Part shown: positions 9,785 to 39,722 of the stretch, in pieces | Layout of the letters: each line of letters begins with the position of its first letter | How positions within the stretch are numbered: position 1 is the stretch's first letter | DNA from: Burkholderiales bacterium | Lineage (GTDB): Bacteria > Pseudomonadota > Gammaproteobacteria > Burkholderiales > SG8-39 | DNA length: 64,000 nucleotides | Direction: 5' to 3' | Assembly: GCA_040902335.1 (NCBI GenBank) | Contig: JBBDXL010000170.1 | Coordinates: 9,283 to 73,282 of the forward strand | The notes under the pieces: model-generated | The model's database searches: none | Told to the model about the DNA's origin: nothing | The model's input: the letters and a program-made list of their open reading frames with translations, nothing else | Translations under genes and position numbers: made by a program

Positions 9785-10954
9785 CTATGCGGACTCGTAC
9801 AGCCTCGTCAGCACGAATTCGCGGTGCCCGAGCGCTTCGGCGGCGGTGAGCCGGCCGTTGGCGGTGCGGAACATGCATTCGAGCAGCTTGTCGCCCGCCT
9901 GGTCGGGCGTGAGCTCCTTGCGCAGCAGCCCCGAGACGTCGACGTCGATGTGCTCGCTCATGGTGCGCACGGTGCGCGGGTTCGCGGAGAGCTTGATCAC
10001 CGGCAGGATCGGGTTGCCGATGACGTTGCCCTGGCCGGTGGGAAAGAGGTGCACCGCGAAACCGGCGGCGGCGCAGAGCGTCACCATCTCGGCCGCGGCG
10101 GAAGAGGAGTCCATGAACCAAAGGCCCGGCCCGGTCGGCATTTCCGCCTTGTCGAGCACGCCGTCGACGACGCACTTGCGGCCGATCTTCTGGATGTTGC
10201 CGAGCGCCTTTTCCTCGATGGTGGTGAGGCCGCCCTCGATATTGCCCTTGGTCGGCTGCGAATCCATGAGATCGCTCGTCTTGTGGCGGTCGACGACCGC
10301 CTGATAGCGGTCGAAGACGAACTGGAATTTCTTCCTCACCTCGTCGTTGCGGCAGCGCGCGGCCACGAGCTGCTCGCCGCCCGTCAGCTCTGTAGTTTCC
10401 CCAAACACCAGGGTGACGCCGCGCGGGTAGAGCTTGTCGAAGGCGTTGCCGACGGTGGGGTTCGCGCCGCAGCCCGAGGTGGTGTCGGACTCGCCGCACT
10501 TGGTTGACACCCACAGATCCTTGAGCGGCCGCTCCTCGCGCCTGAGCTCGGAGGCCCACTGCACGTACTCCTTCGCCGCCTTGGAGGCGCGCATGATGGT
10601 GTCGTGGTCGCCGTGCTGCTCGATGCCGAAGTACGAGACGGGCTTGCCGGTGGCGGCGATGCCGTCGGCCACCTTCTTGGCCCACGTGTCCTCGATGCAG
10701 ATCACCACCACCGCGGCGACGTTCGGGTTCGAGCCCGCGCCGATCAGTGTCCGGAAGTGCAGGTCGAGGTCGGCGCCGAACTGCAGGCGCCCGTACGGAT
10801 GCGGGATCGCCAGCGCGCCCTTCACGTTGTTCTCCACGGCCTGCGCCGCGGCGTTGGAAAGATCGTCCACCGGCAGGATGAGGACGTGATTGCGCACGCC
10901 GACCCGCTGGTTCTCGCGCTTGTAGCCCCAGAAGCTCGCTTTCGAGAGGTCCAT
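9785..10954 (-). CDS. UxaA family hydrolase, large subunit (altronate/galactarate dehydratase C-terminal domain)
   Basis: 389-aa product starting [28 protein letters not shown]; motifs [12 protein letters not shown] and PTGQGN. The rest of the 1058-aa track ORF is antisense to phoD and spurious. Confidence 0.85.
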
Positions 10955-10956
10955 GT

Positions 10957-11238
10957 TCACCACCGCTTGGTTTTCAGGTTCTGAACGTGCGTGTGCTCGC
11001 CCTTGGCGATCGGCGCCACGACTCTTCCGATGTCGACGCCGTACTTGATCACCGTGTCGCCGGGTTTGTAGTCCTTGAGGGCGAGCTTGTGGCCGATCGG
11101 GATGTCGCTCTTCGCGGTGATCCTGATCTCCTTGTCGTCCTCCATGATCCAGCCGGTGAGCTCCTGCCCCTGCTTCACGTCCTCGACGACGACCACGCCG
11201 ACGCCGTCGCCCTCCTCGTGCACGACGAAATGAATCAT
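10957..11238 (-). CDS. UxaA family hydrolase, small SAF-domain subunit
   Basis: 93-aa ORF with [22 protein letters not shown] (SAF domain), immediately upstream of the large subunit. Confidence 0.8.
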
Positions 11239-11275
11239 TGCCTTCTCCGTAACGTTCCCCCGCTATTCTATCGGC

Positions 11276-12802
11276 ATGACCGATCGCCGAAGGTTCCTGC
11301 AGGCGCTCGCCGCCGCGGGTGTTTCGCACGCGCTGCCGGGCTGCGCGCAGGGGACGCCGCGTTTCGCCTCCTATCCCTTCGGCCTGGGCGTCGCCTCGGG
11401 CTATCCGCATCCCGGCGGCATGGTGCTGTGGACGCGGCTCACCGGCGAGCTGCCGCCGGTCGGCTTGCCGGTGCGCTGGGAGATCGCGGCGGACGAGTCC
11501 ATGTCGAAGGTCGTGGCTTCGGGCAACGCCGTTGCGGAGCCGCATTGGGCGCATTCGCTGCGCGTGGAGGCGAAAGGCCTCGAGCCCGATCGCGGGTACT
11601 GGTACCGGTTCATGGCCGGCGACGCCGTGAGCCCGGTCGGGCGCACGCGCACGGCGCCGCGCCTCGATGCCGCGGTCGCGCGGCTGCGCTTCGCCTTCGC
11701 CTCCTGCCAGCAGTACGAGCAGGGCTACTTCGGCGCGCACCGGCACATCGCGGCGGATGCGCTCGACCTGATCGCGTTTCTCGGCGACTACATCTACGAA
11801 TCGTCCTGGGGCAAGGAGCACGTGCGCAAGCACGGCGCGCCGGAACCCTACACGCTCGAGGACTACCGCGCGCGCTACGCCTTGTACAAGTCGGATCCCG
11901 ATTTGCAGGCCGCGCACGCCGCCTGTCCGTGGATCGTCACCTGGGACGACCACGAGGTGGACAACGACTACGCCGACGACCGGCCCGAGGACGGCATGCC
12001 GCGCGAGCAGTTCCTCGCGCGTCGCGCGGCGGCCTATCGCGCCTTTTACGAGCACATGCCGCTCCCCGAGCGTATGAAACCCAAGGGCCCGGAAATGCGC
12101 ATCTACACGCAGCTCGGCTGGGGGACGCTCGGGCGCTTCTACCTGTTGGACGATCGCCAATACCGCACCTGGCAGTCCTGCGCGCGGCGCGGGCGCGGCG
12201 GCTCGAACACCGTGGACGTGGAGAAGTGCGACCGGCTGACCGACGCGAAGCGCTCGCTGCTCGGTGCCGCGCAGGAGCGCTGGCTGGAGGGGGCGCTCGG
12301 CGACTCGCGTTCCCGGTGGAATTTCCTCGCGCAGCAGACGCGCATGGCACAGTTCGATCAGAAGCCGGGACCCGGGCGGCGCGCCTGGACCGACGGCTGG
12401 GACGGCTATCCGGCGGCGCGCGAGCGGCTGCTCGGGTTCCTGGCCGAGCGGCGCATCGCCAATCCGGTGGTGCTGGGCGGCGACGTGCACCAGTTCAATG
12501 TCGCCGACCTGAAGGCCGACTTCGACGATCCCGCCTCGCCGACCGTGGCGAGCGAGTTCGTCGGCACTTCGATCACCTCGCAGGGTTGGCCGCAGGACAC
12601 CCTGAACCGGTTCCTGCCCGACAACCCGCACATGAAGCTGATGGAGTCGCGCTTTCGCGGCTACGTGCGCGTGGACGTGACAGCGCATGAAGCGCGCTTC
12701 GACCTGCGCGCGATGGAGTCGGTGCGCGAGCCCGGCGCGGGGTGCCGCACGCACGCGACGTTCGTCGTCGGGGACGGGCGGGCGGGGTCGGTTCGCGCGT
12801 AG
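11276..12802 (+). CDS. phoD: alkaline phosphatase D family protein (Tat-exported)
   Basis: 508-aa ORF with twin-arginine signal [16 protein letters not shown]. PhoD metallophosphatase motifs [23 protein letters not shown]. Confidence 0.9.
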
Positions 12803-12804
12803 CG

Positions 12805-13185
12805 TCAGCGCAGGAGAGCGAGCGGGTAGAGGAGCATCAGGCCCACGAGGGCGATGAGGAAGAGCGCCCGCACAAAGTCTTCCATCGTCGCGCGCCGCAG
12901 GCGGCTCCAGAGCCAGCGCGCGTAGGAGCCCCCGTGCTCCCGGTGCCACTGGGCCTGCCATGTCTCGCGTGCCGCCGCAGCGTAGTCTGCCGCCTCCCGG
13001 TCCAGGATTTCCTTCGCGCGGGGGTAGTCCCCTTGCGCTACCCAGATGGCGTCGCTCCCGAAGAGCCTCGACTTCGAGCGCGTTTCCTGGTGCGCGATCT
13101 TCGCTTCGTCGAGCAGCCGCAGGATCTCGCGCTCCTGGTCGGGCTCGAGCGGCAGGCTGACGAGGCGCTCGGTGCGGCCCTCCAT
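12805..13185 (-). CDS. hypothetical protein (DUF2007-like N-terminus, C-terminal TM helix)
   Basis: 126-aa ORF with coding-like composition, a small alpha/beta N-terminal region and a hydrophobic tail [19 protein letters not shown]. Confidence 0.5.
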
Positions 13186-13193
13186 CGCAGCGC

Positions 13194-13400
13194 TCAGGGC
13201 TTGAGCACCTCGCGAAGCGCCTTCACGGCATCGAGGCGGCCGTGGTGCGCGGCGAGCATGAGCGCAGTCTGCCCGAAGCGGTCCTTCGCATCGACGTCTG
13301 CGAGCAATGACGTCTCAGCCTGAGAAGCGTCGCCTCCGGCAGCAAATCCGGCCGAGACAGAAAGCGCCGAGGCCAAGACAAACTGAAGGCGTGTTTTCAA
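13194..13400 (-). CDS. small secreted protein with a single ankyrin-like repeat
   Basis: 68-aa ORF with a signal peptide, then [25 protein letters not shown] (ankyrin consensus). Possibly a fragment. Confidence 0.4.
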
Positions 13401-13430
13401 GATTCCGTATGAGTCGTGGCAGATGTCTTG

Positions 13431-13688
13431 TTACTCAATGCCCAGCTCATCCTTTAAACCCAGAACAAAATTTCTCGCGCGCCCAGCAGATACCATGATG
13501 CCCAGCGCCAAGGTTTCCCTCAATTCGGCGGAGGTCGCACCGACCTCCTTCGCGCCTGTGAAGGCGTTACGCAGTCAGGTGGGACAGCCGGCCGCCACGG
13601 CACACCCTGCCTGGATCAGCCTTCGCGTTTTCGCATCCAGCACTTCCTCATACTCGAAATCGATGAGTATCTTCTTTCGCGTCGTCAC
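13431..13688 (-). CDS. carboxymuconolactone decarboxylase/AhpD-like small redox protein with in-frame TGA (candidate selenocysteine, C-P-T-U motif)
   Basis: Own translation: AAGGAG-N6-GTG(13688) MTTRKKILIDFEYEEVLDAKTRRLIQAGCAVAAGCPT-TGA(13577..13575)-LRNAFTGAKEVGATSAELRETLALGIMVSAGRARNFVLGLKDELGIE-TAA. Both halves share one frame. The TGA falls where the second Cys of the family CxxC motif is expected. Confidence 0.55.
13530..13574 (-). promoter_or_regulatory. SECIS-like stem-loops immediately 3' of the in-frame UGA
   Basis: On the mRNA: UGA-N8-CGCCU-UCAC-AGGCG-CGAA-GGAGGUC-GGUGC-GACCUCC. The perfect 7-bp stem has a G-rich 5-nt loop that starts 33 nt after the UGA. Confidence 0.4.
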
Positions 13689-13778
13689 GTTTTTCTCCTT
13701 GCCAGCAGCAAGCTCAGAGCACCGCGCGCTGCCGGATCACGTTCGCGGTCTAACGTCCATTAGCGATAGCGCGTCATG

Positions 13779-14069
13779 CTATTTGCACTTCAGATTCGCC
13801 GACCAGTTCTCGATCGGCTTCGTGCAATCCGCCTCGTTCACCTGCCGCGTCGCATCGAGCCCGCGCTCCCGTGCGGCGGCGCTGCCGCCGTACTCCGCCG
13901 CGATCAGGCCGATGCCGATCAGCGCCCAGACCGCGGGACCGCCGTGCCCGCTGTAGCCGGCTGAAAAGCTGGTGGTGGTGCTCGTCACACTGCCACCCGA
14001 GTCAAACCGCACGCTCGTATGCGAGCACCCGGCGATGAGAAAGGCACAAACCAGCGTAAGAAATCTCAT
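13779..14069 (-). CDS. hypothetical lipoprotein
   Basis: 96-aa ORF with lipobox LIAGC after a signal peptide. Lies in a lower-GC patch. Confidence 0.55.
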   Translation of the reverse strand: MRFLTLVCAFLIAGCSHTSVRFDSGGSVTSTTTSFSAGYSGHGGPAVWALIGIGLIAAEYGGSAAARERGLDATRQVNEADCTKPIENWSANLKCK

Positions 14070-17451: not shown

Positions 17452-17940
17452 CTAGAACTCGATGTCCTCGCGAATCGCCGCGATGCCCGCCGCCGCGCAG
17501 GCGTCGTCCTCCTTGCCGCCGGGCGCGCCCGAGACGCCGATCGCGCCAAGCAGCGATCCGCCCGCCTCGATCATCAGACCGCCACCCACCGCGGCCACGC
17601 CGGGCAGATCCCGGATGCCGCTCGAGGGCTTGCCGGCCTGGCTGGCTTGCGCGAGCTCCGTCGTGTTGGTGCGGAAGCTCGCCGCGGTCCAGGCCTTGCT
17701 GCGCGCCATCTCCACGGTGTGCGTGCCGGCATAGCGGTCGCGCAGCAGCACCTGCGTCACGCCCATGCGGTCCACCACGGCCACCGTCACCTGGAAGCCG
17801 CCGTCGCGGCATTTCTTCAGCGCGGCCTGCGCCGCCTTGAGCGCGGTCTCGGGCGTGAGCAGCTTGATCGAGTGGGTGCCCTGGGCCGAGGCGGCCAAAG
17901 GGAAAATTCCGAGGCACAGCAAGAGCAGGGTGAGTTTCAT
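17452..17940 (-). CDS. GlcG/HbpS-like heme-binding protein (DUF336), secreted
   Basis: 162-aa product with a signal peptide. Motifs AVVDRMG...LRD and GGGLMI...GAIGVSGAPGGKEDDACA. Confidence 0.75.
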   Translation of the reverse strand: MKLTLLLLCLGIFPLAASAQGTHSIKLLTPETALKAAQAALKKCRDGGFQVTVAVVDRMGVTQVLLRDRYAGTHTVEMARSKAWTAASFRTNTTELAQASQAGKPSSGIRDLPGVAAVGGGLMIEAGGSLLGAIGVSGAPGGKEDDACAAAGIAAIREDIEF

Positions 17941-19046
17941 GTCATCCGCCAGTATTGGTATTTCATCGTGAGCGCGGAGCCGGCGACGATCGCCGCGAAG
18001 GTGAGGAACGAGCCCAACGCGAGCGTTGAGATGCCGGTGATCGCCTGGCCGATGGTGCAGCCCAGCGCGGTGATGCCGCCGAAGCCCATGAGCGTCCCGC
18101 CGATCACGTGGTTCGCGGTGTCCCCGGCGTCGCGAAAGCCCTCCCAGCGGAAGCTGCGCGTGGCGAGCGCATAGGCGGCCGAGCCGGCGATCACGCCCAG
18201 CCCCGATGCGATGCCGTAGGTGACGATCTTCGACTTGTCGGTCCACAGCATCAGATATTCGAGCGTGTAGGCCATCGGCGAAACGAAGGAGAACGACTCC
18301 ATGCGCCCGGTGTTGGTGGCGATGAACGCCTCCTGCAGCGTTTCGGGATGCTCTTCGACATAGCCGAGCACGCCGCTGACATACCAGCCGCCGACCACCA
18401 CCAGCCCCGTGACCACGCCGCCCAGCGTGTAGTCGAAGTTGGCGCGGAACTCTCTTTTCGCGTAGGCGAAGGCGACGAGCCCGCCGCCGATCGCCGCCGC
18501 CAGGATCGCCGTCCAGGTCGGCTGGGCCCCGCCGGTCGCCGCCGCGAGAAGCGAGCCCAGGTCCTGCCCCGTGGGCAGCGTGATCGCCGCCCTCTCCAGC
18601 ACGCCCACGCGGAACGCGCCGAACAGGCCCCTGAGCGTCATGTAGGCGGCGATGCCGAGGAACACGTAGACGATGAGCGACTTGAGGTTTCCCCCGCCGA
18701 TGCGGATCAGCGTTTTCGAGCCGCAGCCCGAGCCGAGCGTCATGCCGACGCCGAAGAGAAAACCGCCGACGATGTACGAGAGCCAGGTGAAGTTGGAGCC
18801 CGGGTAGATCGACTTGGAGAGGTCCACCACGCCGGCGAGGGCGAGCGCGCTCGAGCCGAGCAGCGCCACCGCGATGGCGAGCAGCCACATGCGCATGCGA
18901 CTGGTATCGCCCATGTTCACCCAGTCGGATACCGCGCCCATCGTGCAGAAGTTGGTCTTGTTGCCTACGGCGCCGAAAATGAAGGCGAGGACGAACGCGC
19001 CGCCGGTGACGTAGGGGACGAGCTGCGCGGGATCGGCTTCGTTCAT
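17937..19046 (-). CDS. YeeE/YedE family sulfur-compound (thiosulfate-type) transporter
   Basis: Polytopic membrane protein with the paired conserved motifs NFCTMGA and GGITALGCTIGQ. Start MNEADPAQ at 19046 overlaps the upstream stop (ATGA). Confidence 0.85.
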   Translation of the reverse strand: MNEADPAQLVPYVTGGAFVLAFIFGAVGNKTNFCTMGAVSDWVNMGDTSRMRMWLLAIAVALLGSSALALAGVVDLSKSIYPGSNFTWLSYIVGGFLFGVGMTLGSGCGSKTLIRIGGGNLKSLIVYVFLGIAAYMTLRGLFGAFRVGVLERAAITLPTGQDLGSLLAAATGGAQPTWTAILAAAIGGGLVAFAYAKREFRANFDYTLGGVVTGLVVVGGWYVSGVLGYVEEHPETLQEAFIATNTGRMESFSFVSPMAYTLEYLMLWTDKSKIVTYGIASGLGVIAGSAAYALATRSFRWEGFRDAGDTANHVIGGTLMGFGGITALGCTIGQAITGISTLALGSFLTFAAIVAGSALTMKYQYWRMT

Positions 19047-20152
19047 CGGAGATGCTCCAGGGCCTTGCGGTGATCGAGCACGCCGCGCGCGGCGTCGGCG
19101 GCCCCCCGGAGCGAGCCGTGACGGCCGAGATGCCACAGGCACAGCGCGGCGCCGTAGATCAGGCAGTCGCGCGTCGGGCCGCTCTGGCCGGCGAGCGCCG
19201 CCATGCCGGCCGCCGCGGCCGCTTTCGCCGCGACCGCCGCATCGAACGGCACTTCGCTATTGCCGTCGTCGCTCGCGCCGGGGATGCGCGGCGCGCGTAC
19301 GGACTGCTCGATGCCGAGCTCGGCAGGCTTGAACTCCACCGCCATCTCCTCGGCGCCGCCGAGAACGCGGAACACCTTGCCGGTCTGCGAGAGCGACGGA
19401 ATCACGCCGCCCTCGACGCCGCGCACGATGAGCGCGGAGTCGAAACCAGCGTGGCGCGCGAGCAGCGCGTAAATGCGCGGATAGGGCTTGTGCACGTAGC
19501 CGGTGACGAGATGGGTCTTCAGGCGGCCGCGCACGGGACCGGCCAGCACCTCGGCGGTGGTGATGGCGGGGCGCTTCACGATGAGCGCGCGCAGCGCGGC
19601 GAGCGCGTAGAGCTTCGGGCAGAACGCTTTCTGATCGACGTAGGCCCAGCCGATGCGCGCATCGCCGAGTCGCGCGGCGGCCTCTTCCGGCCCCAGATCC
19701 ACCGGCAAGCCGGCGGCGCCCAGCACCTGCCGGTGCGTGACGCCGTACTTGGGGCCCATGCGCTCGACGCCGTGCGAAACCGTGGCCACGCCGCAGGCAG
19801 CGAGTACCGGCGGCAGGAAGGGCGAGGCCGGCAGCGTCCGGATGTAGCCGTCGTAGGGGTCGCCGATGTCGAGCACCTCGTCCACCGGCGCGGTGGCGCC
19901 GCGCGTCGCATCGCGAATCGCTTCCAGCACGCCGAGGTTTTCGTCGTCCGTCTCGCGCTTCATGCGCAGCGCGATCAGGAATACCCCGGCCTGCACCGGA
20001 TCGACCAGCCCGTCGAGCACCAGGCGCATGCCCGCGCGGGCCTCTTCGCGCGAGATGTCCTTGCTCAGCTCCGGCCCGGTGGCGATGCGCTTGAGGATCG
20101 AGCGCATCAGGGCCGCATCATCTGCCGGGCTCACGCGCAGCGAAGCGCTCAT
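19043..20152 (-). CDS. glycosyltransferase family 3 / anthranilate phosphoribosyltransferase-like protein (non-canonical, TrpD2/YbiB-like)
   Basis: N-terminal helical bundle (ILKRIATGPELSKDISREEA...AGVFLIALRMKRET) and an alpha/beta domain. The PRPP-binding GTGGD motif is replaced by IGDPYDG. Confidence 0.7.
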   Translation of the reverse strand: MSASLRVSPADDAALMRSILKRIATGPELSKDISREEARAGMRLVLDGLVDPVQAGVFLIALRMKRETDDENLGVLEAIRDATRGATAPVDEVLDIGDPYDGYIRTLPASPFLPPVLAACGVATVSHGVERMGPKYGVTHRQVLGAAGLPVDLGPEEAAARLGDARIGWAYVDQKAFCPKLYALAALRALIVKRPAITTAEVLAGPVRGRLKTHLVTGYVHKPYPRIYALLARHAGFDSALIVRGVEGGVIPSLSQTGKVFRVLGGAEEMAVEFKPAELGIEQSVRAPRIPGASDDGNSEVPFDAAVAAKAAAAAGMAALAGQSGPTRDCLIYGAALCLWHLGRHGSLRGAADAARGVLDHRKALEHLR

Positions 20153-25577: not shown

Positions 25578-25895
25578 CTAGCGCGCCGCCTTGGGCGCCT
25601 TGTGGGACGGATCGTTCGGATTGAGAAAGATGAAGCGCCACTCGCCGGGATTGATCTCCACGTAATCCAGCGTGGCGCCGGTCAGCAGCTCGACGCTGCC
25701 GGGCGCGACCAGGATCGTGACGCCGTTGCAGGCCACCCGCGCGTCGCCCTCGGCCGCGTCGTCGAAGCCCATGCCGTACTCGATCACGCCCTTGTCGTCC
25801 AGGCGCGCGGCGAGGCGCAGGCTCGGGCTGCCGCCGCCGGCCTGTGCGGCCGACTTGGCGATCTGCTCGGCCGCCTGCGGCGTGACGCTGATCAT
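25578..25895 (-). CDS. dsrR: IscA/HesB-like protein lacking the cluster-ligating cysteines (DsrR)
   Basis: 105-aa A-type-carrier fold (ISVTPQAAEQI...LRLAARLDDKGVIEYGMGFDD...LDYVE) without the C-terminal CGCG cysteines. Last gene of the dsr operon, as in Allochromatium. Confidence 0.75.
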   Translation of the reverse strand: MISVTPQAAEQIAKSAAQAGGGSPSLRLAARLDDKGVIEYGMGFDDAAEGDARVACNGVTILVAPGSVELLTGATLDYVEINPGEWRFIFLNPNDPSHKAPKAAR

Positions 25896-26227
25896 CAGCC
25901 CGTGCTCCAGGCGCGCGGCCGGCGCATGCCGGCGACCTTGCAGGCCTGCTTCACGTAGCCGTAGGGAAACAGTCGGAACAGCTCGTTGCGGTCCTCGCGG
26001 CCCGCGCCGCGCCAGACGGCCAGATGCTTCATGACGTGGCGCGCGTCCGGCGCGATGTGGTGTGCTTCGTAGTACTGGCGCATGAACCGGATCACCGCCC
26101 AGTGCGCATCGGTGAGCGCGATGCGCTCCCTGCGCGCCAGGTCCTCGGCGACGCTCTCGTTCCAGTCGCCGGGATCGACGAGGTAGCCTTCGTCGTCGAG
26201 CGCGGGCCGCGTGCTCTCGACCCTCAT
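25895..26227 (-). CDS. TusE/DsrC-family protein, only penultimate Cys retained (tail ...QACKVAGMRRPRAWSTG)
   Basis: 110-aa product MRVESTRPALDDEGYLVDPGDWNESVAEDLARRERIALTDAHWAVIRFMRQYY...LFPYGYVKQACK. ATGA overlaps on both sides (dsrN, dsrR). Confidence 0.8.
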   Translation of the reverse strand: MRVESTRPALDDEGYLVDPGDWNESVAEDLARRERIALTDAHWAVIRFMRQYYEAHHIAPDARHVMKHLAVWRGAGREDRNELFRLFPYGYVKQACKVAGMRRPRAWSTG

Positions 26228-27630
26228 CAGGCGTGGGGTACCGCGGCTTTGGCGCGTTGCGTAACGCAGCGCCGCGCGAACTCGACGAAGCGCCGCGCCC
26301 AACGGTTGCCGGAGACGTCGCGCAGGTGCGCGTAAGAGGCGAGCAGGTTGCGGTGCACGATGCCGTCGCGCCGGCCATCGATGCCGTAGCCGCGCTCCAC
26401 GTCGTAGGCGAACTCGAGGCCGGGCGCGAGGTTCTCGACGCTCGAATAGTGGAACTCGTGCGCGCGGATGAGCGCCGGCTCGCCCGCCGGCCGCGCGGGC
26501 CACAAGCCGCGGCCGGTTTCGCGCAGATGCACGTAGCCGCGGCCGACCGGGCGCGCGTGCATGACGATGTCCGCCGGGAGCACGCCGGCCATCTCGGCGC
26601 GGCGCCCGTGCCATTCGATGGCGCGCGCGAGGTACATCAGCCCGCCGCATTCAGCGTAGGCGGGCATCCCGGCCTCGATCGCGTTGCGCACCTCGGCGCG
26701 CAGCGCGGTGTTCGCGGCGAGCGCCTCCATGTGCGTCTCGGGAAACCCGCCGCCGATGAACAGCGCGTCGACGCGCGGCAGGCGCTTGTCGCGCAGCGCG
26801 TCGAAGGGCACGAGCTCCGCCCCGGCGGCGCGCAGGGCCTCCAGATCGCCCGGGTAGTAGAAGCCGAACGCCGCGTCGCGCGCGATGCCGATGCGCACCG
26901 GCGCTCCGCCGGCCGCCTCGGACGCCAGTTCACCGCCCTGCAGCGGCGGCGCCTGCCGGGCGATGGCCCGCACCTGGTCGAGGTCGACCTGTGCGGCGAT
27001 GTGCGCCGCAATCGCGTCGATGCGGCTGCGCGCGCCTTCCGCCTCGTTGCTCGGCACCAGCCCAAGGTGGCGCTCGACGATCGCCATGCGCTCGTCGTGC
27101 TGCACGGCGCCGAGCACCGGCACGCCGGTGTAATGCTGGATCACGGCGCGCAGCTTGGCCTCGTGGCGCGAGCCTCCGAGCTGATTCAAGATCACGCCGG
27201 CGATGCGGATGTTCCGGTCGAACGCCTGGTAGCCGAGAATGAGCGGCGCGATGCCGCGCGTCATGCCGCGCGCGTCGATCACCAGCACCACCGGCGTGCC
27301 GAGCATCGCGGCGAGGGCGGCGTTGCTGTTGCTGCCGTCCAGCGCCAGGCCGTCGTACAGGCCCTTGTTGCCCTCCACCAGGCCGAGCGTGGCGCCCTGC
27401 ATGCGCTGCGCGAACTCGGCGCGCAGCTCCTGGGCGCCGCTCAGATAAGGGTCGAGGTTGTAGCAGGGCCGCCCGGCGGCGAGTCCGAGCCACAGCGGAT
27501 CGATGTAGTCGGGACCTTTCTTGAAGGGCTGCACCGCCTCGCCGCGCGCGCCGAGCGCCGCGCACAAGCCGATGCACACCGTGGTCTTGCCCGAGGACTT
27601 GTGGGCGGCGGAGATGAACAGGCGGTTCAT
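26227..27630 (-). CDS. dsrN: cobyrinic acid a,c-diamide synthase-like siroheme amidase
   Basis: 467-aa product with P-loop SAAHKSSGKTT and the glutamine amidotransferase Cys in YAECGGLMYL. Sits after dsrP. Confidence 0.85.
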   Translation of the reverse strand: MNRLFISAAHKSSGKTTVCIGLCAALGARGEAVQPFKKGPDYIDPLWLGLAAGRPCYNLDPYLSGAQELRAEFAQRMQGATLGLVEGNKGLYDGLALDGSNSNAALAAMLGTPVVLVIDARGMTRGIAPLILGYQAFDRNIRIAGVILNQLGGSRHEAKLRAVIQHYTGVPVLGAVQHDERMAIVERHLGLVPSNEAEGARSRIDAIAAHIAAQVDLDQVRAIARQAPPLQGGELASEAAGGAPVRIGIARDAAFGFYYPGDLEALRAAGAELVPFDALRDKRLPRVDALFIGGGFPETHMEALAANTALRAEVRNAIEAGMPAYAECGGLMYLARAIEWHGRRAEMAGVLPADIVMHARPVGRGYVHLRETGRGLWPARPAGEPALIRAHEFHYSSVENLAPGLEFAYDVERGYGIDGRRDGIVHRNLLASYAHLRDVSGNRWARRFVEFARRCVTQRAKAAVPHA

Positions 27631-28823
27631 GCGGCCGCGGATTCGACGTCGCCGTCCGCGAGGCTCTTCGGCAGGAACGGCAAGACCTTCAGCGCCACGG
27701 CGGTAAGCGCCAGCGCCAGCGCCACGCCGCCGACGCCGAGCGCCAGTTCCGGCAGGCTCGGCGCGTAGCTTGCGACCACGCCGTCGAAGAAGCTGCTCGC
27801 GACTTCCTTTTCCGGGAACATCAGCTGCGGGTAGGCCTGGCCGCCGATGATGAGGACATAGAGCTGCGCGAGCCCGCCCACGATCACCGCCACCGCCGCC
27901 GCCGCGAGCGCGCGGCGCGATGTGCTGCCGAACAGCAGCACGAGCGGCACGATGCCGCCGACCAGAACATGGCCGAGCCAGAACAGCGCCGTATAGACAC
28001 CGCCGTCCCAGAGGAAGAAGCGCTCCACGTCGTGCCGGCGCGCGATGTAGAGGTTGGTGAGGTGCTGGACCGCGACGAAATACAGCACCGCCGCGACGAA
28101 CACGCCGAGCAGGTTCCTGAGCCGCTTCAGCACCACGTCGCCCAAGGGGCGGCCGGTCCACCGGCAAGCGGCCATCAGCACCAATACGAAGATCGCCAGG
28201 CCGAAAGAGAACGACATGATGATGAACAGCGGCGCGAGCAGCGCACTGTCGTAGGGCTCGCGCGCCACCAGGAAGCCGAAGATCGATCCGGTGCCGGTGG
28301 TGAGCACCAGGCGCCACACGAACGCGAGCAGGCCGGCGCGCCTGGTGTAGCCGTTCATGCGCCGCTCGAACATGCTCCACAGGTACAGCGCCACCACGGC
28401 GAAGAACCCGGTGTAGAGGAAGATGTTCCAGGCGAAGATCGACTTGAAGTTGTAGTGCGTCATCGCCACGATCAGCCGCTCGGGCCGGCCGAGGTCGAGC
28501 ACCAGCACCGCGAGGCCGCCGGCGAGCAGCGTTATGGCGAGCAGCCCCGAGAGCCGGGCGAGCGGCTTGTACAGCTCCCGCCCGAACACCGAGGCGATCG
28601 AGGCGACGTTGAGCGCGCCCGAGGCGGCCACGATCAGGAACACCGCGAACACGTGCGGCGTTCCCCACACGATGCGGTTCGTCATGCCCGTGATGTGGTG
28701 GCCCTCGTGCTCCATCATCCAGGCCGCCCCCAGGCCCGCCAGGATCAGCGCGCCGAGCACACCAAGCAGCGCCAGGAAGGCGCCGCTGCGACCGTCGATC
28801 TCGCGATACTGGATGCTCGCCAT
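27627..28823 (-). CDS. dsrP: DsrP, NrfD/PsrC-like integral membrane quinone-interacting subunit
   Basis: 398-aa polytopic membrane protein directly after dsrO. Confidence 0.9.
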   Translation of the reverse strand: MASIQYREIDGRSGAFLALLGVLGALILAGLGAAWMMEHEGHHITGMTNRIVWGTPHVFAVFLIVAASGALNVASIASVFGRELYKPLARLSGLLAITLLAGGLAVLVLDLGRPERLIVAMTHYNFKSIFAWNIFLYTGFFAVVALYLWSMFERRMNGYTRRAGLLAFVWRLVLTTGTGSIFGFLVAREPYDSALLAPLFIIMSFSFGLAIFVLVLMAACRWTGRPLGDVVLKRLRNLLGVFVAAVLYFVAVQHLTNLYIARRHDVERFFLWDGGVYTALFWLGHVLVGGIVPLVLLFGSTSRRALAAAAVAVIVGGLAQLYVLIIGGQAYPQLMFPEKEVASSFFDGVVASYAPSLPELALGVGGVALALALTAVALKVLPFLPKSLADGDVESAAA

Positions 28824-28825
28824 GG

Positions 28826-29551
28826 CTAGAGGCCCTGGTAGCGCACGCCGGTGTTGAGCGCGAGGTCGGCGCGGATTTGGCTGGAGGGCTCGCGCTTCAG
28901 GCGCCGGTGGATCTCCGACGACGCGTCGTTCAGGTCGCCGAACGCCATCGCCTTGCCGCCGTCCTTGTTGCACGCCTCCACACAGGCCGGCGTCTCGCCG
29001 CGGTCCACGCGGTGCACGCACAGGGTGCAGGACTCCACCGTGCCCTTGCCGCGCGGCACGTCCGCCTTCTGCCCGCTCACCGCCTCGTGGACGAACGAGC
29101 GCGCGCCGTACGGGCAGGCGAGGACGCAGTAGCGGCAGCCGATGCAGGTGTGCTTGTCGACCAGCACGATGCCGTCGTCGCGCCTGAACGAGGCGCCGGT
29201 CGGGCACACGTCCACGCACGGCGGGTGCTCGCAGTGCTGGCACATGAGCGGCAGCGTCTGCGCGTAGCCGGTGCGCTTGTCGCGCAGGCTCACCTTGCGG
29301 ATCCACTGCGCGTCGGTCCCGGGGCGGCCGTGGCCGGTGACGCCGTTCTCCTCGTGGCAGGCGGTGACGCAGGCGTCGCACTCCCCGCACTGCGTGATGT
29401 CGATCAGCAGCCCCCAGCGCTGCAGCTTGGAGGCGGCTTCCTGCGGCGAGCGCGCCTGCGCGAGCTCGATCAGCCTGAAGCCCGGCGCGAGGGCCGCGCC
29501 GGCCGCCGCGGCCGCGCCCCAACCCAGAAACTCGCGGCGATCCGGATTCAT
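28826..29551 (-). CDS. dsrO: DsrO, periplasmic 4Fe-4S ferredoxin-like subunit (Tat signal)
   Basis: MNPDRREFLGWGAAAAAGAALA twin-arginine signal plus several CxxCxxCxxxCP cluster motifs. Start ATG 29551 overlaps the dsrJ stop. Confidence 0.9.
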   Translation of the reverse strand: MNPDRREFLGWGAAAAAGAALAPGFRLIELAQARSPQEAASKLQRWGLLIDITQCGECDACVTACHEENGVTGHGRPGTDAQWIRKVSLRDKRTGYAQTLPLMCQHCEHPPCVDVCPTGASFRRDDGIVLVDKHTCIGCRYCVLACPYGARSFVHEAVSGQKADVPRGKGTVESCTLCVHRVDRGETPACVEACNKDGGKAMAFGDLNDASSEIHRRLKREPSSQIRADLALNTGVRYQGL

Positions 29552-29901
29552 GGCCTGGCCGCGACCCGCTTCTGCCGCAGCGGCGTATGGCACTCGAAGC
29601 AATCCATCTTCACCGCGGCGTATTCATGGCAGCTCGAGCAGAAGCCCTCCTTGCCGAGCACGCTGCCGGTCTCGCGGCTGGCGTGGCAGTCGACGCAGTT
29701 CTTCAAGCTGAAGCGCGGCTCGCGCAGCCCCTGGCGCAGGGTCCGGTCGCGCTGGTGCAGCAGCATGTCCATGTGGTCGCGGCGCATCTCCGCGGTCGGC
29801 GCGACGCAGGCTTCGCCGCGCTCGATCTTGAACCTGGGCGCATCGGCGCGCGCCGCGAGCGTCAGCACGGCGGCCAGGATTCCAGCGGCGATGCGCATCA
29901 T
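29548..29901 (-). CDS. dsrJ: DsrJ, periplasmic triheme cytochrome c
   Basis: 117-aa product with a signal anchor and three CxxCH motifs (CVDCH, CSSCH, CFECH). Confidence 0.9.
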   Translation of the reverse strand: MMRIAAGILAAVLTLAARADAPRFKIERGEACVAPTAEMRRDHMDMLLHQRDRTLRQGLREPRFSLKNCVDCHASRETGSVLGKEGFCSSCHEYAAVKMDCFECHTPLRQKRVAARP

Positions 29902-29909
29902 TCCCGCGC

Positions 29910-31895
29910 TCAGTGATCGCCCAGGCCCATCTTGATGTACCCGGTGGGGCACACATCGGCGCAGATGTGGCAGCCGATGCACAGGTCGTAGTCGGTGTAC
30001 ACGTAGCGGCCCATCGTGGCCTCCGCCTTGGGGGTGCGCTTGACCGCGACCTGCGGGCAGTAGATGACGCAGTTGTCGCACTCGAAGCACATGCCGCAGC
30101 TCATGCAGCGCTTGGCCTCGTCCACCGCCTGCTTGTCGGTCAGGCCCACCATGCGCTCGGCGAAGTGGCCCAGCACCTCCTCGGCCGACGGCCCGATCTC
30201 GGTGCGCTTGATGCGCTCCTGGTACGGGAAATGGCCGAGGAACAGCTCCTCGGACTTGCACACCTCCGCGGCGCTGCGGTCCTCGTAGTTGTGGATGGCG
30301 AAGCCGCCCACCGCCTTGCCGTGTTCGGAGGTGCCGCGCAGTCCCTGGTCGATAAGGCGCGGACCATTGGCTTCGGAGGACTCGTATTTCCCGGGCTCGA
30401 GGTTCACCTCGCGCAGCTTGTCGAGGAGGTTGAAATGGTGCACGTCGACCTTCGGCCGCTTGGGCATTTCCTTGTGGTCGAGATAGCGGTCGATGCTGTC
30501 GGCGGCGATCGAGCCCTGGCCGATCACGGTGGTGAGCAGGTGCGGCCGGAGGATGTCGCCGCAGGCGAACACGCCCTGGCGGTTCGGCAGCTGGTAGAAC
30601 TTGTCGGCCGCGATCTGGCCCTTGCCGTTGTCGAGCTCCTCCATCCCCGCGAGGTCGCCCTGCTGGCCGATGGCGACGACGATGAGATCGGCCTCGACGT
30701 CCATCTCGGTGCCGGGCTTCTCGGTGAACTTGTTCTTGTCCCACTGCACCTCGATCAGGCGCAGCGCCTTGGCGCGCCCGCTCTTCTCGTCGACGATCAC
30801 CTTCTTGGGCAGGAGGTTGCCCTGGATCTTGACGCCTTCGCGCTGCGCGTCCTCGATCTCGTGCCTGGCGGCGTTCATCTGCTCGATCGGCTGCATCGAG
30901 GTGAGCATCACGTCGGCGCCCTGGCGCGCGGCGAGCGTCGAGACGTCGTGCGCGGTGTGCCCCATGACCACATGCTCCGGGCGCTCGGCCTCCGCGACGT
31001 CTTCGACATAGCCCAGGCGCCGCGCCACCGATACCACGTCGACCGAGGTGTCGCCGCCGCCGATCACCACCACGCGGCCGGCGACCGCCTGCAGGCGCCC
31101 CTGGTTGAAGGCCTCGAGGAACGCGACCCCGCTGATGCAGTTGGGCGCATCGGCACCGGGGACCGGCAGCGCGCGCCCCGCCTTGCAGCCGATGGCGATG
31201 AGCACCGCGTCGAAATCCTTCTCCAGCTCCTGCAGCTGCACGTCCTTGCCGATGCGCGTGTTGGGCCGCACTTCGACGCCCATGGCGATGATGCGATCGA
31301 TCTCGCCATCGAGGTGCGTGCGCGGCAGGCGGTAGCCCGGCACGCCGTATTTCGCCATGCCGCCGAGCTCCGCGTGATCGTCGAACAGCGTCACGGCGTG
31401 GCCCTTGCGGCGCAGTTGATACGCCGCGGACAGGCCCGCCGGGCCGCCGCCCACGATCGCCACGCGCTTGCCGGTCTCGGGGCCTGCCTGGAAGGCGAAC
31501 TTCTGCGCGAGCGCGTAGTCGCCGATGTACTGCTCGACCGCGTTGATGCCGACGGTGTCCTCCACTTTGTTCCTGTTGCAGCCCGCCTGGCAGGGCGCGG
31601 GGCACACGCGACCCATCATCGAGGGGAAAGGGTTGGCGTCGGTGGAACGCCGGAACGCGTACTCCTGCATGCTCGTGCCCTTGGGGGCCTTCTCCACGCC
31701 GCGCACGATGTTGAGCCAGCCGCGGATGTCCTCGCCCGAGGGGCAGCTCGCCTGGCAGGGCGGCGTCTTGTGCACGTAGGTCGGGCACTTGTCGGACTCG
31801 TCGCCGGCGAAGATCTGCTCCTGGAACGAACCCCACTCATGATCGCCGTCCTTGAACTTGCGGAAGGTGTGCCCGCTTTTCGCTGGCGCTGACAT
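29910..31895 (-). CDS. dsrL: DsrL, NAD(P)H-dependent iron-sulfur flavoprotein (GltD-like)
   Basis: 661-aa product with VAIVGGGPAGLSAA and VVVIGGGDTSVD dinucleotide folds. C-terminal ferredoxin domain CMSCGMCFECDNCVIYCP / CIGCHICADVCP. Confidence 0.9.
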   Translation of the reverse strand: MSAPAKSGHTFRKFKDGDHEWGSFQEQIFAGDESDKCPTYVHKTPPCQASCPSGEDIRGWLNIVRGVEKAPKGTSMQEYAFRRSTDANPFPSMMGRVCPAPCQAGCNRNKVEDTVGINAVEQYIGDYALAQKFAFQAGPETGKRVAIVGGGPAGLSAAYQLRRKGHAVTLFDDHAELGGMAKYGVPGYRLPRTHLDGEIDRIIAMGVEVRPNTRIGKDVQLQELEKDFDAVLIAIGCKAGRALPVPGADAPNCISGVAFLEAFNQGRLQAVAGRVVVIGGGDTSVDVVSVARRLGYVEDVAEAERPEHVVMGHTAHDVSTLAARQGADVMLTSMQPIEQMNAARHEIEDAQREGVKIQGNLLPKKVIVDEKSGRAKALRLIEVQWDKNKFTEKPGTEMDVEADLIVVAIGQQGDLAGMEELDNGKGQIAADKFYQLPNRQGVFACGDILRPHLLTTVIGQGSIAADSIDRYLDHKEMPKRPKVDVHHFNLLDKLREVNLEPGKYESSEANGPRLIDQGLRGTSEHGKAVGGFAIHNYEDRSAAEVCKSEELFLGHFPYQERIKRTEIGPSAEEVLGHFAERMVGLTDKQAVDEAKRCMSCGMCFECDNCVIYCPQVAVKRTPKAEATMGRYVYTDYDLCIGCHICADVCPTGYIKMGLGDH

Positions 31896-31897
31896 GG

Positions 31898-33388
31898 CTA
31901 TCTCCGATTGAATACGATGGCGTTGCCGACCAGAGCGTGCACGCTGCCGATCATGTCCATGGGGTGCTGGTAGTAGGGCAGCACCTTGGTGAACTGGCTC
32001 TTGCAGATGGCGCAGATCGCGGCCATGTAGTTGACGCCGTGCTCCTCGACCACCTGCTGCAGCGCCTGCATGCGCGGCAGCGCGCCCTTGACGCGCAGCT
32101 CGACCAGGTCGTCGGTGAGCAGCCCCCCGCCCCCGCCGCAGCAGAAGGTGGCCTCGCCGATGGTCTCGGGCGCCATGTCGACGAACCGGTCGACGCAGGC
32201 GCGGATGATCTCGCGCGGGATCGTGAACTGCCCGCCCGGCACGTCGCCCATGCGCGAGCCGCGCGACACGTTGCACGAATCGTGGAAGGTCACCACCTTG
32301 TCGGCGTTGGCGCTCTTGTCGAGCGTCAGCGCGCCGCGGTGGATGAGGTCCCAGGTCACCTCGCAGATGTGCTGCGGCGCCGGGTAGCGCGCATCGAGAA
32401 AATCGAACGGCCCGATGAGCGTGTTCCAGAAGCTGTAGGCGACGCGCCAGGCGTGGCCGCACTCGCCCACCACGATGCGCTTCACGCCCAGCTCGAGCGC
32501 CGCCTCGCGGATGCGCTCGGCCACCTTCTGCAGGTTGTCGTGGTTGCCGATGAAGAGCGAAAAGTTCGCCGCTTCCGACGCGTGCGTGGAGAGCGTCCAC
32601 GAGATGCCCGCCGCGTGGAACACCTTGGCGTAGCCGATCAGCCCGTCGATGTGCGGCTCGGCGAAGAAGTCGGCGCTCGGCGTGACGAGCAGCACTTGCG
32701 CCCCTTTCTCGTCGAGCGGGAAGCGCACGTCGACGCCGGTCGCTTCCTTCACGTCCTCTTCCAGGCCGTCGAGCGTGTTGCGCAGCGCCGGCCCGGGCAG
32801 GCCGAGGTTGTTGCCGATCTTGTGCACCTTGCCGATGATCTCGTTGGAGTACTTCTGCCCGAGGCCGACGCTGTCCATGATGTCGCGCGCCGCCATCGAG
32901 ATCTCGGCGGTGTCGATGCCGTAGGGGCAGAACACCGAGCAGCGCCGGCACTGCGAGCACTGGTGGAAGTAGCTGTACCAGTCGTCCAGCACGTCCTTGG
33001 TCATGTCGCGCGCGCCCACCAGCTTCGGGAAGTGCTTGCCGGCGAAGGTGTAGTAGCGCCGGTACACCGAGCGCAGCAGGTCCTGGCGCGCCACCGGCAT
33101 GTTCTTGGGATCGGCGGTGCCCAGGTAGTAGTGGCACTTGTCGGTGCAGGCGCCGCACTTGACGCAGGAATCGAGGAACACCTGCAGCGCGCGCGACTGC
33201 GAGACGAGCTCGCCGAGCTTGGTGACGGCGACCTTTTCCCAGTCCGGCACAAGCTCGCCGGGGAAGCCGAGCGGCGTTTGCAGATCGGGCTTGGCGACGA
33301 AGGGCCTGGAATGCGCCATCGCCCCCTCGCGCACGAGCGGGATCACGGGATACTCGCCCAGCTTTGGCGTTTCGAAGGTGCTTGCCAT
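31898..33388 (-). CDS. dsrK: DsrK, HdrD-like catalytic subunit with CCG domain
   Basis: 496-aa ORF with CVKCGACTDKC, CSQCRRCSVFCP and the CCG motif FCCGGGGG. Confidence 0.92.
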   Translation of the reverse strand: MASTFETPKLGEYPVIPLVREGAMAHSRPFVAKPDLQTPLGFPGELVPDWEKVAVTKLGELVSQSRALQVFLDSCVKCGACTDKCHYYLGTADPKNMPVARQDLLRSVYRRYYTFAGKHFPKLVGARDMTKDVLDDWYSYFHQCSQCRRCSVFCPYGIDTAEISMAARDIMDSVGLGQKYSNEIIGKVHKIGNNLGLPGPALRNTLDGLEEDVKEATGVDVRFPLDEKGAQVLLVTPSADFFAEPHIDGLIGYAKVFHAAGISWTLSTHASEAANFSLFIGNHDNLQKVAERIREAALELGVKRIVVGECGHAWRVAYSFWNTLIGPFDFLDARYPAPQHICEVTWDLIHRGALTLDKSANADKVVTFHDSCNVSRGSRMGDVPGGQFTIPREIIRACVDRFVDMAPETIGEATFCCGGGGGLLTDDLVELRVKGALPRMQALQQVVEEHGVNYMAAICAICKSQFTKVLPYYQHPMDMIGSVHALVGNAIVFNRR

Positions 33389-33389
33389 G

Positions 33390-34115
33390 TCAACGCAACC
33401 GCGCGGACCAGCCCGCCACGTGGCGGTGTTCGCGCGCGTCGTCGACCTGGTTCAAGCTCGGGCTGAAGAACACCCCCGGCGCGTGCAGCAGCTTCGACAC
33501 GGGAAACACGATCATCAGCACGGCCACCAGCGCGAGGTGGATGAGCAGCACCGGGTCGGCGGGCAACGGCCGCCAGTCGAACGCCATCAGTCCGAGGAAG
33601 AACGCCTTCAGCGCCACGATGTCGGTGTGCACGAGATATTTCATGGCGAGGCCGCTCGCGGCGATGGCGGCGAGCAGCGCAAGCATCAGGTGATCGGAGG
33701 GAGCGCTGATGTAGCGCACGCGATCGACGAGCACGCGCCGCGCCCACAGCCCGCCGAGCCCGGCGAGCATGGCGAACGCCGCGTACAGGCCGAACGGCTG
33801 CACGAGGTCCACCCAGAACCACACCGGCTCGGTGAAATAGCGCAGGTGCCTGAGCAGCACGAGGAGCAAGGCGACGTGGAACATCCAGCCGAAGAGCCAG
33901 GTCCACTTGCTGGAGCGGAACAGGGCGCGGAACAGCGTCACCTCCACGAGCATGCGCAGCGCGACGCCGCCGCGCGTGGTCGGCGCCGGCGGGATCGGGA
34001 TCTTCAGCGGCTGCGGCGTGCGCGCGTACACCCAGCACTTCCAGGCCACGCCGCCGACCAGCGTGGCGGCGACGACGTAGAAGAGCAGCGCGTAGAAGAC
34101 GGTCAGCGCCGGCAA
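33390..34115 (-). CDS. dsrM: DsrM, NarI-like diheme cytochrome b
   Basis: 241-aa ORF with 5 hydrophobic helices and conserved His pairs. Sits between dsrC and dsrK. Confidence 0.9.
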   Translation of the reverse strand: MPALTVFYALLFYVVAATLVGGVAWKCWVYARTPQPLKIPIPPAPTTRGGVALRMLVEVTLFRALFRSSKWTWLFGWMFHVALLLVLLRHLRYFTEPVWFWVDLVQPFGLYAAFAMLAGLGGLWARRVLVDRVRYISAPSDHLMLALLAAIAASGLAMKYLVHTDIVALKAFFLGLMAFDWRPLPADPVLLIHLALVAVLMIVFPVSKLLHAPGVFFSPSLNQVDDAREHRHVAGWSARLR

Positions 34116-34127
34116 CGGTCGCTGTTC

Positions 34128-34460
34128 CTATACACAGCCGGTCGGCTTGGGCAGCCCCGCGTACTTGCAGGCCTGCTTGGCGGGACCGTACGGGAACAGC
34201 TCGTACAGGTACTTGCTGTTGCCCTTGTCCGCGCCGAGCTTCTTGCCGATGGCCTTGGTCAGCACGCGCACCGCCGGTGCGATCTGATACTCGTCGTAGT
34301 ACTCGCGCAGGAAGTTGAGCACTTCCCAGTGGTTCTCGCTCAGGTCGCAGTTGTCGACGCGCGCCATTTCCTTGGCCACGTCCTCGCTCCAGTCGGCGCG
34401 GTCGGCGAGATAGCCTTCCTCGTCGGTTTCGATGGTCTTGCCGCTCACTTCGATGGGCAT
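34128..34460 (-). CDS. dsrC: DsrC, sulfur carrier with both C-terminal cysteines
   Basis: 110-aa ORF ending ...LFPYGPAKQACKYAGLPKPTGCV, the canonical two-Cys arm. Confidence 0.95.
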   Translation of the reverse strand: MPIEVSGKTIETDEEGYLADRADWSEDVAKEMARVDNCDLSENHWEVLNFLREYYDEYQIAPAVRVLTKAIGKKLGADKGNSKYLYELFPYGPAKQACKYAGLPKPTGCV

Positions 34461-34479
34461 ATCGTTTCTTCCTCCAGGA

Positions 34480-34779: not shown

Positions 34780-34790
34780 GTGTCCAGTCC

Positions 34791-35559: not shown

Positions 35560-35561
35560 GC

Positions 35562-36656: not shown

Positions 36657-36677
36657 CGCGACCTCCTCAGTCCTGAC

Positions 36678-39717: not shown

Positions 39718-39722
39718 GTGGC

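Follow-up and report, generated by a model that had tools for sequence, protein, structure and literature searches.

The stretch of DNA analysed here (the window: 64,000 nt of contig JBBDXL010000170.1 from a Burkholderiales bacterium, assembly GCA_040902335.1) carries on its minus strand a small gene of the GSU3128 family that is interrupted by an in-frame TGA. The TGA is conserved among relatives, the coding halves on both sides of it are under purifying selection, and two hairpins with different distributions, H1 and H2, follow it directly in the mRNA. The reading favoured here, with a probability of roughly 85%, is that of a functional gene for an 85-residue, four-helix protein of the carboxymuconolactone decarboxylase (CMD)/AhpD fold with the active site Cys35-Pro-Thr-Sec38, in which the UGA would be read as selenocysteine (Sec) by means of a downstream hairpin.

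From its GTG start, the gene encodes an N-terminal part of 37 codons ending in AAGCPT (VTTRKKILIDFEYEEVLDAKTRRLIQAGCAVAAGCPT); beyond the TGA, the same frame continues up to the TAA stop (LRNAFTGAKEVGATSAELRETLALGIMVSAGRARNFVLGLKDELGIE). The Shine-Dalgarno sequence lies within a motif, GAAAGGAGAAAA, that is conserved upstream of the gene across the family (upstream alignment, 22 loci). At this place the list of open reading frames (ORFs) holds only a 37-aa piece (13575-13688) and a 30-aa fragment with a TTG start (13431-13523), so the gene was missed by ordinary ORF calling. A first-pass annotation, made from the letters and the ORF list, had placed the Shine-Dalgarno sequence, GTG, TGA, TAA and one hairpin (H2) on the minus strand, and all of these coordinates are confirmed (Table 1).

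Table 1. Positions of the selenoprotein gene candidate, its signals, the insert that carries it and the dsr cluster in the window
Feature	Position	Strand	Remarks
Gene, 85 codons (GTG start, TGA as codon 38, TAA stop)	13431..13688	minus	sequence and translation
Shine-Dalgarno AAGGAG	13695..13700	minus	6-nt spacer, then GTG at 13688; within family-conserved motif
TGT, Cys35, first residue of the C-P-T-U redox motif	13584..13586	minus	invariant in alignment
In-frame TGA, predicted selenocysteine codon, residue 38	13575..13577	minus	aligns with second Cys of CPTC
TAA stop	13433-13431	minus	47 in-frame codons between TGA and TAA
Hairpin H1, family-wide SECIS-like element	13547..13564	minus	begins 10 nt after UGA; UGA to loop 17 nt
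Hairpin H2, the hairpin of the first-pass annotation	13530..13548	minus	begins 26 nt after UGA; UGA to loop 33 nt
Low-GC single-gene insert, ~345 bp	13411..13756	minus	blastn limits, shared with related loci; flanking genes not shared
Leader, ~70 nt	13689..13756	minus	blastn homology to other loci ends at 13756
DsrA	36678-37982	minus	
DsrB	35562-36656	minus	
Three small ORFs of DsrEFH size	34128-35174	minus	by size alone
DsrM-like gene	33390-34115	minus	
DsrK-like gene	31898-33388	minus	
NrfD/DsrP-like gene	27627-29522	minus	
CobB/CobQ-type DsrN-like gene		minus	C-terminal part of ORF 26227-28668
HesB/IscA-like ORF	25578-26378	minus	

Profile and Pfam searches of the product were run with the TGA translated as Cys. 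NCBIfam NF041047, "GSU3128 family (seleno)protein", is matched end to end at 119 bits (cutoff 110, E = 6.7e-35), residues 1-83 of the product covering profile positions 1-83 of 84; orthologues at a greater distance reach 98-106 bits against the same equivalog cutoff of 110. The CMD/AhpD resemblance that the first-pass annotation had seen is borne out by Pfam PF02627 (CMD; E = 2.4e-10, 40.7 bits, cutoff 23). So is its view that the TGA stands at the second redox Cys: in the alignments, C35-P-T-(TGA)38 corresponds to CPTC in 10 Cys-type orthologues and to CxxC in the structures 7y4r and 3bey. The nearest solved structures by sequence, 7y4r (RclX), 3bey and 5dik, are small CMD/AhpD proteins whose CxxC is aligned to C-P-T-U. 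An AlphaFold2 model of a 73%-identical Cys-type orthologue (P0001, not the window protein) has four helices at a predicted local distance difference test score of 75. Its top fold matches in the PDB are all CMD/AhpD proteins, including TM1620 (TM-score 0.69, 2.1 A, 70 columns).

This family is known. NF041047 is tabulated as 'Distant alkylhydroperoxidase (AhpD) homolog, CxxU' in a 2026 review, a passage of which credits the 2004 prokaryotic selenoproteome study by Kryukov and Gladyshev with the distant AhpD homolog family (PMC13188914). The selenoproteins listed for Geobacter sulfurreducens and G. uraniumreducens include a 'distant AhpD homolog' (PMC1794560), and marine metagenomes are rich in AhpD-like and CMD-domain CxxU selenoproteins (PMC1088965, PMC2398784). 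On these four sources, the statement in the first-pass annotation that AhpD-like families appear in selenoproteome surveys was correct. A literature search under the name 'GSU3128' returned no papers. The gene is a member of the already curated GSU3128, or 'distant AhpD homolog', selenoprotein family reported in 2004, and the case is an annotation gap, not a discovery, because that family was described then.

Identity with AhpD in the strict sense was considered and rejected. AhpD so defined has about 175 aa and a catalytic CxxC with a His/Glu proton relay, and is coupled to AhpC. The window protein has 85 residues, its match to TIGR00778 (ahpD_dom) reaches 13.9 bits, below the cutoff of 27.8, and the AhpD of Mycobacterium tuberculosis is a weak fold match; ahpC was not found among the 40 ORFs scanned in the window. 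By its sequence, the window protein is classified as an AhpD-fold-type redox protein and not as an AhpD orthologue.

Conservation of the TGA was followed in related DNA loci (L numbers) and proteins (P numbers), the loci coming from public metagenome samples and two metagenome-assembled genomes (MAGs). The protein search gave nine full-length Cys-type relatives reading CPTC, and seven gene calls (P0012-P0018) that end directly after the residue before the TGA; five of the latter end in '...CPT', and the closest has 92% identity. At the DNA level, the relatives have TGA at exactly codon 38 in 25 distinct orthologues (64-94% amino-acid identity) and TGC in 10. All of them, TGA-type and TGC-type, are co-linear and open through to a common stop. 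Among the Sec-type genes, the ratio of nonsynonymous to synonymous substitution rates (dN/dS) is 0.067 before the TGA and 0.086-0.13 after it, with a downstream dS > 1. Such low values on both sides indicate that both halves are translated in frame and are under strong purifying selection.

These data bear directly on the alternative that the first-pass annotation had itself raised, a nonsense pseudogene, i.e. a Cys-type CMD gene broken by a TGC/TGT-to-TGA mutation or a TGA introduced by sequencing error. A single nucleotide separates TGA from TGC or TGT, and Sec machinery is not seen within the window, both of which speak for a lesion. Against this stand the occurrence of the TGA in 25 distinct sequences from independent metagenomes and MAGs, the slow evolution of the codons that follow it (dN/dS 0.09-0.13, dS above 1) and the grouping of the Sec-type genes in one clade with a conserved hairpin downstream. 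The pseudogene is rejected as highly improbable. The selenoprotein reading of the first-pass annotation is supported, as far as sequence comparison reaches, by the shared TGA, the selection on both halves and the family match.

Another possibility is that the TGA is decoded with no involvement of selenium, either through near-cognate insertion of Trp or Cys or through readthrough independent of a selenocysteine insertion sequence (SECIS), or that the two halves are made as separate peptides. In its favour, one public annotation gives the orthologous TGA as W: protein P0004 (L036 4319-4570) reads 'CPTW'. Sec insertion in the present gene is also deduced rather than directly demonstrated. The DNA codon beneath the 'W' of P0004 is TGA, however, so the residue is an annotation artefact. 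TGA is moreover the normal stop in the window, where it ends 39 of the 63 predicted ORFs; an alternative genetic code (4/25, with TGA as Trp or Gly) is therefore no explanation for the interruption and was rejected. The codon lies opposite the catalytic Cys of CxxC, the classic position of Sec/Cys exchange, and the GSU3128 family is curated as a selenoprotein family (PMC13188914). Separate peptides are further opposed by the finding that neither a start codon nor a Shine-Dalgarno sequence after the TGA is conserved among the orthologues. Decoding without selenium is thus considered very unlikely, and the UGA is best regarded as a predicted Sec codon. The GSU3128 family is systematically mis-annotated in metagenome data.

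A neighbour-joining tree was built from positions outside the hairpin region only and rooted on one GV-type Cys gene. In this tree the GV-type genes are the outgroup, and the Sec-type genes form a single clade, whose sister group is the Cys-type genes of L034 and L035. As a separate observation, L023 carries two Cys-type paralogues about 1 kb apart on one metagenomic contig (Cys codons at 1467 and 2431).

Two hairpins lie within the coding sequence after the TGA. On a scale with the T of TGA as 0, H1 occupies positions 13-19/24-30 and H2 positions 29-35/41-47; they are offset by 16 nt, with H1 nearer the UGA, and overlap by 2 nt. H1 is the element conserved across the family. Its consensus form, CCUUCGC-AGGU-GCGAAGG, folds at -11.7 kcal/mol (z = -3.5), and the loop is AGGU or GGUC in the family outside the window. 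The window form, CCUUCAC-AGGC-GCGAAGG, makes six of seven pairs with one A.C mismatch and is weaker (-6.3 kcal/mol, z = -1.2; 26 of 200 shuffles fold as well). Over 25 sequences, 94.3% of H1 cells are paired, compared with 41-61% when the 3' arm is slid. Pairing averages 6.6/7 in the Sec-type genes and 4.0/7 in six Cys-type genes, and H1 is lost in 8 of the 10 Cys-type genes, where six "NGVAGAKE" genes and L037 keep only 3-5 of 7 pairs.

The synonymous sites of H1 are nearly frozen. Third positions of codons +4/+5/+6/+8/+9 read C20, C19/T1, A20, G19/T1 and G20 in 20 sequences, an entropy of 0-0.29 bits against ~1.2-1.9 at other Ala/Gly third positions. Synonymous divergence (dS) is 0.16 in H1, 0.95 in H2 and 1.15-1.7 elsewhere. 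Counting the U of UGA as 1, consensus H1 reads G19 C20 A21 G22 G23 U24; the fdhF SECIS of E. coli, the sequence of which was verified in 5,419 E. coli genomes, has the same letters at the same positions. G23 and U24 are the SelB contacts of the fdhF SECIS. Judged from its sequence and distribution, H1 is read as the putative ancestral SECIS of the family.

H2, the hairpin that the first-pass annotation had proposed as the SECIS, is stronger and far more restricted. It has the form GGAGGUC-GGUGC-GACCUCC, with a stem of 7-8 bp and a loop of 5 nt (or 3 nt), and folds alone at -14.1 kcal/mol (z = -4.0; 0 of 200 shuffles fold as well). Published criteria for bacterial SECIS elements (bSECIS) comprise an upper stem of 4-16 bp capped by an apical loop of 3-9 nt; a G at one or both of the first two loop positions, as a rule with G or U next; a UGA-to-apical-loop distance of 16-37 nt; and a minimum free energy of -7.5 kcal/mol or lower (PMC13188914, Fig. 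2 legend). By all four, H2 of the window qualifies, with its GGUGC loop, 33-nt distance and low energy. H1 of the window agrees with three and fails on energy, at -6.3 against -7.5 kcal/mol, a limit that the family-consensus H1 passes. The proposal of H2 as a SECIS thus holds as regards these criteria; as regards conservation it does not, the family-conserved element being H1.

An intact H2 (7/7) occurs only in a shallow clade consisting of the window, L001/L002, L003, L009, L010 and L011. It is missing from all Cys-type genes and from 19 of the 25 Sec-type sequences, and over the whole family 60% of its cells are paired, similar to slid and shuffled controls. In the tree the H2 clade is nested inside the Sec-type clade (L011, L010, L009 with L001/L002, L003, window). 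Compared with sister sequences, four codon changes gave rise to H2: three are synonymous (GAA to GAG, GGC to GGT, GCC to GCG), and the fourth, GCC to GTC, replaces Ala by Val. Only two substitutions have occurred in H2 within the clade, both C-to-U opposite G, with pairing kept. In the same clade, the H1 loop reads AGGC or AGGG in place of AGGU, and the H1 stem has acquired mismatches (G18A in the window, L003, L010 and L011; G26U in L001/L002); L009 alone has a perfect H1. In a 39-nt context of the window sequence, H1 is displaced by a shifted hairpin with the loop UCAC, and H2 forms with high probability. The fold of the whole 86-nt region around the TGA is uninformative (z = -1.0), and only the individual hairpins stand out. 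A further close relative, L033 326-578 (86% identity in the best segment), carries the KEVGATSAEL signature of the H2 clade, and its frame is broken ahead of the Sec codon; either this copy is a true pseudogene or the assembly is wrong there.

Which hairpin works in the window gene can be argued both ways. The selenoprotein gene may be as proposed with H1 still the working SECIS and H2 incidental or merely stabilising. H1 is the sole element conserved over the whole Sec-type clade, with frozen synonymous sites, and its 17-nt spacing and loop position are those of the fdhF SECIS. The closest relative, L009, has a perfect H1 in addition to H2, and within the H2 clade the substitutions at positions 3-50 number about half of what the share of these positions in the length would predict, so that both hairpin regions are constrained. 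In the window itself, however, H1 lies above the energy threshold and is equalled by 26 of 200 shuffles (z = -1.2). In the 39-nt context it is out-competed by the UCAC-loop hairpin, which lacks an early loop G, and the loop U, found in every Sec-type sequence outside the clade, is lost throughout the clade. H2 is favoured because in the window lineage it arose, once, and H1 lost its loop U and a stem pair; on sequence evidence it is more likely the working SelB-binding element of this gene, alone or with the H1 remnant. Since the comparison involves six related sequences and few substitutions, continued function of H1 is kept as a serious possibility, albeit the less probable one.

A number of results weigh against the Sec reading or against the hairpin evidence for it. 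Five of the seven H1 pairs are fixed by the peptide A-F-A-G-A-K-E, so the synonymous sites are the informative ones. A covariation test of H1 in the Sec-type genes found none, conservation only; the sequence support for H1 is synonymous-site conservation, not compensatory change. The Cys-type genes of L034 (237-494) and L035 (856-1113) keep AFAGAKE and H1 at 7/7, with a GGU-containing loop and a compensatory C-G to U-A change, the only one found. Their H1 would be either a fossil SECIS left after a Sec-to-Cys reversion or a hairpin that predates the switch to Sec. Retention of the hairpin in Cys-type relatives had been named in the first-pass annotation as an observation that would tell against a SECIS: for H1 it is seen in these two loci, for H2 in none. 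RNAalifold, applied to the 25 Sec-type sequences, gives a shifted weak consensus at -7.7 kcal/mol that is neither H1 nor H2; this fold was not adopted, as single-sequence folds mostly choose H1 and the frozen synonymous sites coincide with H1.

For H2, the support consists of six closely related sequences only. A perfect 7-bp hairpin with an early loop G at a SECIS-compatible distance follows 16 of the 678 TGA triplets on the strand (~2.4%), so that H2 by itself is suggestive, not decisive. Rfam was searched with the whole window at gathering thresholds and with 13400-13720 at E up to 10; nothing relevant came up, and neither hairpin was matched by a family at these thresholds. As to decoding, a scan of 40 ORFs for domains and a tRNA search of the 64 kb found none of selA, selB, selD and tRNA-Sec in the window (0 tRNAs). 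We know of no member of the GSU3128 family for which a biochemical function has been demonstrated.

The Sec-decoding trait consists of four genes: selA, selB, selC (tRNA-Sec) and selD. In 18 related loci, the only tRNA is one tRNA-Pro, and the window contains no other TGA-interrupted coding region. The host is presumed, from the gene itself, to be capable of Sec decoding.

In the proposed mechanism, SelB carrying Sec-tRNA(Sec) would read UGA 13577-13575 as selenocysteine and would be recruited to it by the mRNA hairpin just downstream, within the coding sequence. The protein would presumably work as a thiol/selenol oxidoreductase that cycles between a selenenylsulfide and the reduced selenol/thiol, an activity predicted by analogy from the fold and the CxxU motif. 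Its role might be peroxide or oxidant defence, or the reduction of a partner protein. Sec insertion itself, the identity of the SelB-binding hairpin and the biochemical substrate are all matters of prediction here.

The gene sits in a segment that differs from its surroundings. Homology by blastn to all 37 matching loci is limited to 13756-13411, even for L009 at 93% nucleotide identity. GC content falls to 0.56 at 13400-13799, against ~0.70 in the flanks, and GC at third codon positions (GC3) is 0.66 in the gene, against ~0.9 in the window, the overall GC of which is 67%. The neighbours of the orthologues vary by locus (exonuclease VII and a hemolysin-like gene, ABM, phytochelatin synthase, MazE, methyltransferase). 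The GC drop, the unshared flanks and the varying neighbours together point to a small, compositionally foreign unit with a Shine-Dalgarno sequence of its own, to which a leader is added in part of the clade. This pattern of sequence sharing suggests that a single-gene unit has moved horizontally. Meaningful repeats flanking the insert were not found.

The leader has the layout GTTAGACCGCG ... GTGCTC ... CTGCTGG, upstream of the GAAAGGAGAAAA Shine-Dalgarno region. It travels together with the gene: it is conserved in L003, L011 and L012, the GTTAGACCGCG block also in L015, and it is not found in host flanks. The leader is presumed to be a promoter or operator. A search for a sigma-70 consensus in the leader and for an intrinsic terminator at the insert gave no match; the leader may be a regulator-binding site or a non-canonical promoter.

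A more far-reaching scenario joins the hairpins and the insert. SECIS function would be passing from the ancestral H1 to H2, 16 nt downstream, in one shallow clade, H2 coming first and H1 beginning to decay afterwards, with the sister Cys-type lineage bearing a 'fossil' or pre-adapted H1; the gene and its leader would also move as a 345-bp single-gene unit. This combined account is speculative and, as it stands, rather unlikely. If true, the hand-over and mobility would offer a natural snapshot of bacterial SECIS turnover and would show a Sec gene spreading into hosts that already decode Sec.

In the window, the gene is bordered on one side by a 96-aa ORF coupled to Sua5/TsaC and on the other by a short ankyrin-like ORF. 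The latter, a 68-aa ORF with a partial ankyrin repeat (13194-13400, minus), is directly downstream. Further on, in a 1058-aa ORF (9785-12961, minus), Pfam domains (altronate/galactarate dehydratase) are confined to the final ~380 residues, so that the N-terminal 2 kb probably do not form one gene. A YeeE/YedE-type 'sulphur transport' protein (17937-19142, minus), encoded at a distance of 4 kb from the candidate gene, adjoins CysG; YeeE/YedE-type members are linked to thiosulfate uptake and selenium metabolism. The window also carries an FCSD-like flavoprotein and central-metabolism genes.

Outside the insert, a dsr cluster lies on the minus strand (25578-37982; Table 1), of which the stretch 29522-31898 received no call from the crude gene caller used. 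In gene order it is reminiscent of the reverse-type cluster that sulfur oxidisers have. A Cas6 gene (39669-40364) stands alone and adjoins an AbiEi-type antitoxin/regulator (40814-41566), and a CRISPR-like repeat array was not detected within 38900-44600. Towards the right edge lie, on the minus strand, a DmsC-like membrane anchor (61827-62738) and a DmsB-like 4Fe-4S subunit (62742 to the end of the window) that runs off the window; a molybdopterin catalytic subunit should lie just past the edge. Some enzymes of the molybdopterin superfamily contain Sec, and the formate dehydrogenase alpha subunit is the commonest bacterial selenoprotein.

Scientifically the case adds little, since the family, its CxxU motif and the logic of detection have been in print since 2004-2008. 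In practical terms, a genuine gene has been split or truncated by ordinary ORF callers, and the case shows a repair route for such annotations. The gene also predicts Sec decoding by a dsr-carrying bacterium. For selenoprotein specialists, two small points are new: a second SECIS-like hairpin, specific to one clade, whose presence coincides with the erosion of the ancestral hairpin, and Cys-type sister genes that still have the ancestral hairpin. Both bear on the evolution of SECIS elements and of Sec/Cys switches.

Among known systems, M. tuberculosis AhpD (1knc, 1gu9) has a like fold class and a CxxC redox centre, and ranks 35-45 in the fold search. It differs in being twice the size of the window protein and a weak match (Foldseek E = 3-7), and the window shows nothing of its partner system (AhpC, lipoamide/DlaT); the likeness is limited to fold and chemistry. 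Closer are the small hexameric proteins RclX (7y4r), TM1620 (1p8c, 1vke), MTH O27018 (3bey) and lpg0406 (5dik), which have the same helical fold and a CxxC that aligns with C-P-T-U. These are Cys proteins of 90-120 residues with 27-38% identity, and none is a selenoprotein; the deposited titles of small CMD/AhpD structures suggest antioxidant roles. The marine 'AhpD-like 2' (pfam02627, CxxU) and 'CMD domain-containing protein' (CxxU) share the Pfam domain and the CxxU motif with the window gene and were predicted by like logic, from Sec/Cys pairs plus a bSECIS (PMC2398784, PMC1088965).

With respect to the decoding signal, the E. coli fdhF SECIS resembles H1 in being a hairpin that lies within the coding sequence and follows the UGA directly. 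The window H1 departs from it in reading A19 C20 A21 G22 G23 C24 and in having no bulged U. H2, with its loop 33 nt from the UGA, lies at the far end of the published range of 16-37 nt (PMC13188914). The nearest parallel is the NF041047 family itself. Its Geobacter member comes from a different setting, the window host being a high-GC bacterium with a dsr sulfur-metabolism cluster and not Geobacter. The window gene is further set apart by its position in a 345-bp low-GC insert and, with its clade, by the extra hairpin H2. With the family at large it shares the length of ~84 aa, the position of the CxxU/CxxC motif and the mixture of Sec and Cys forms.

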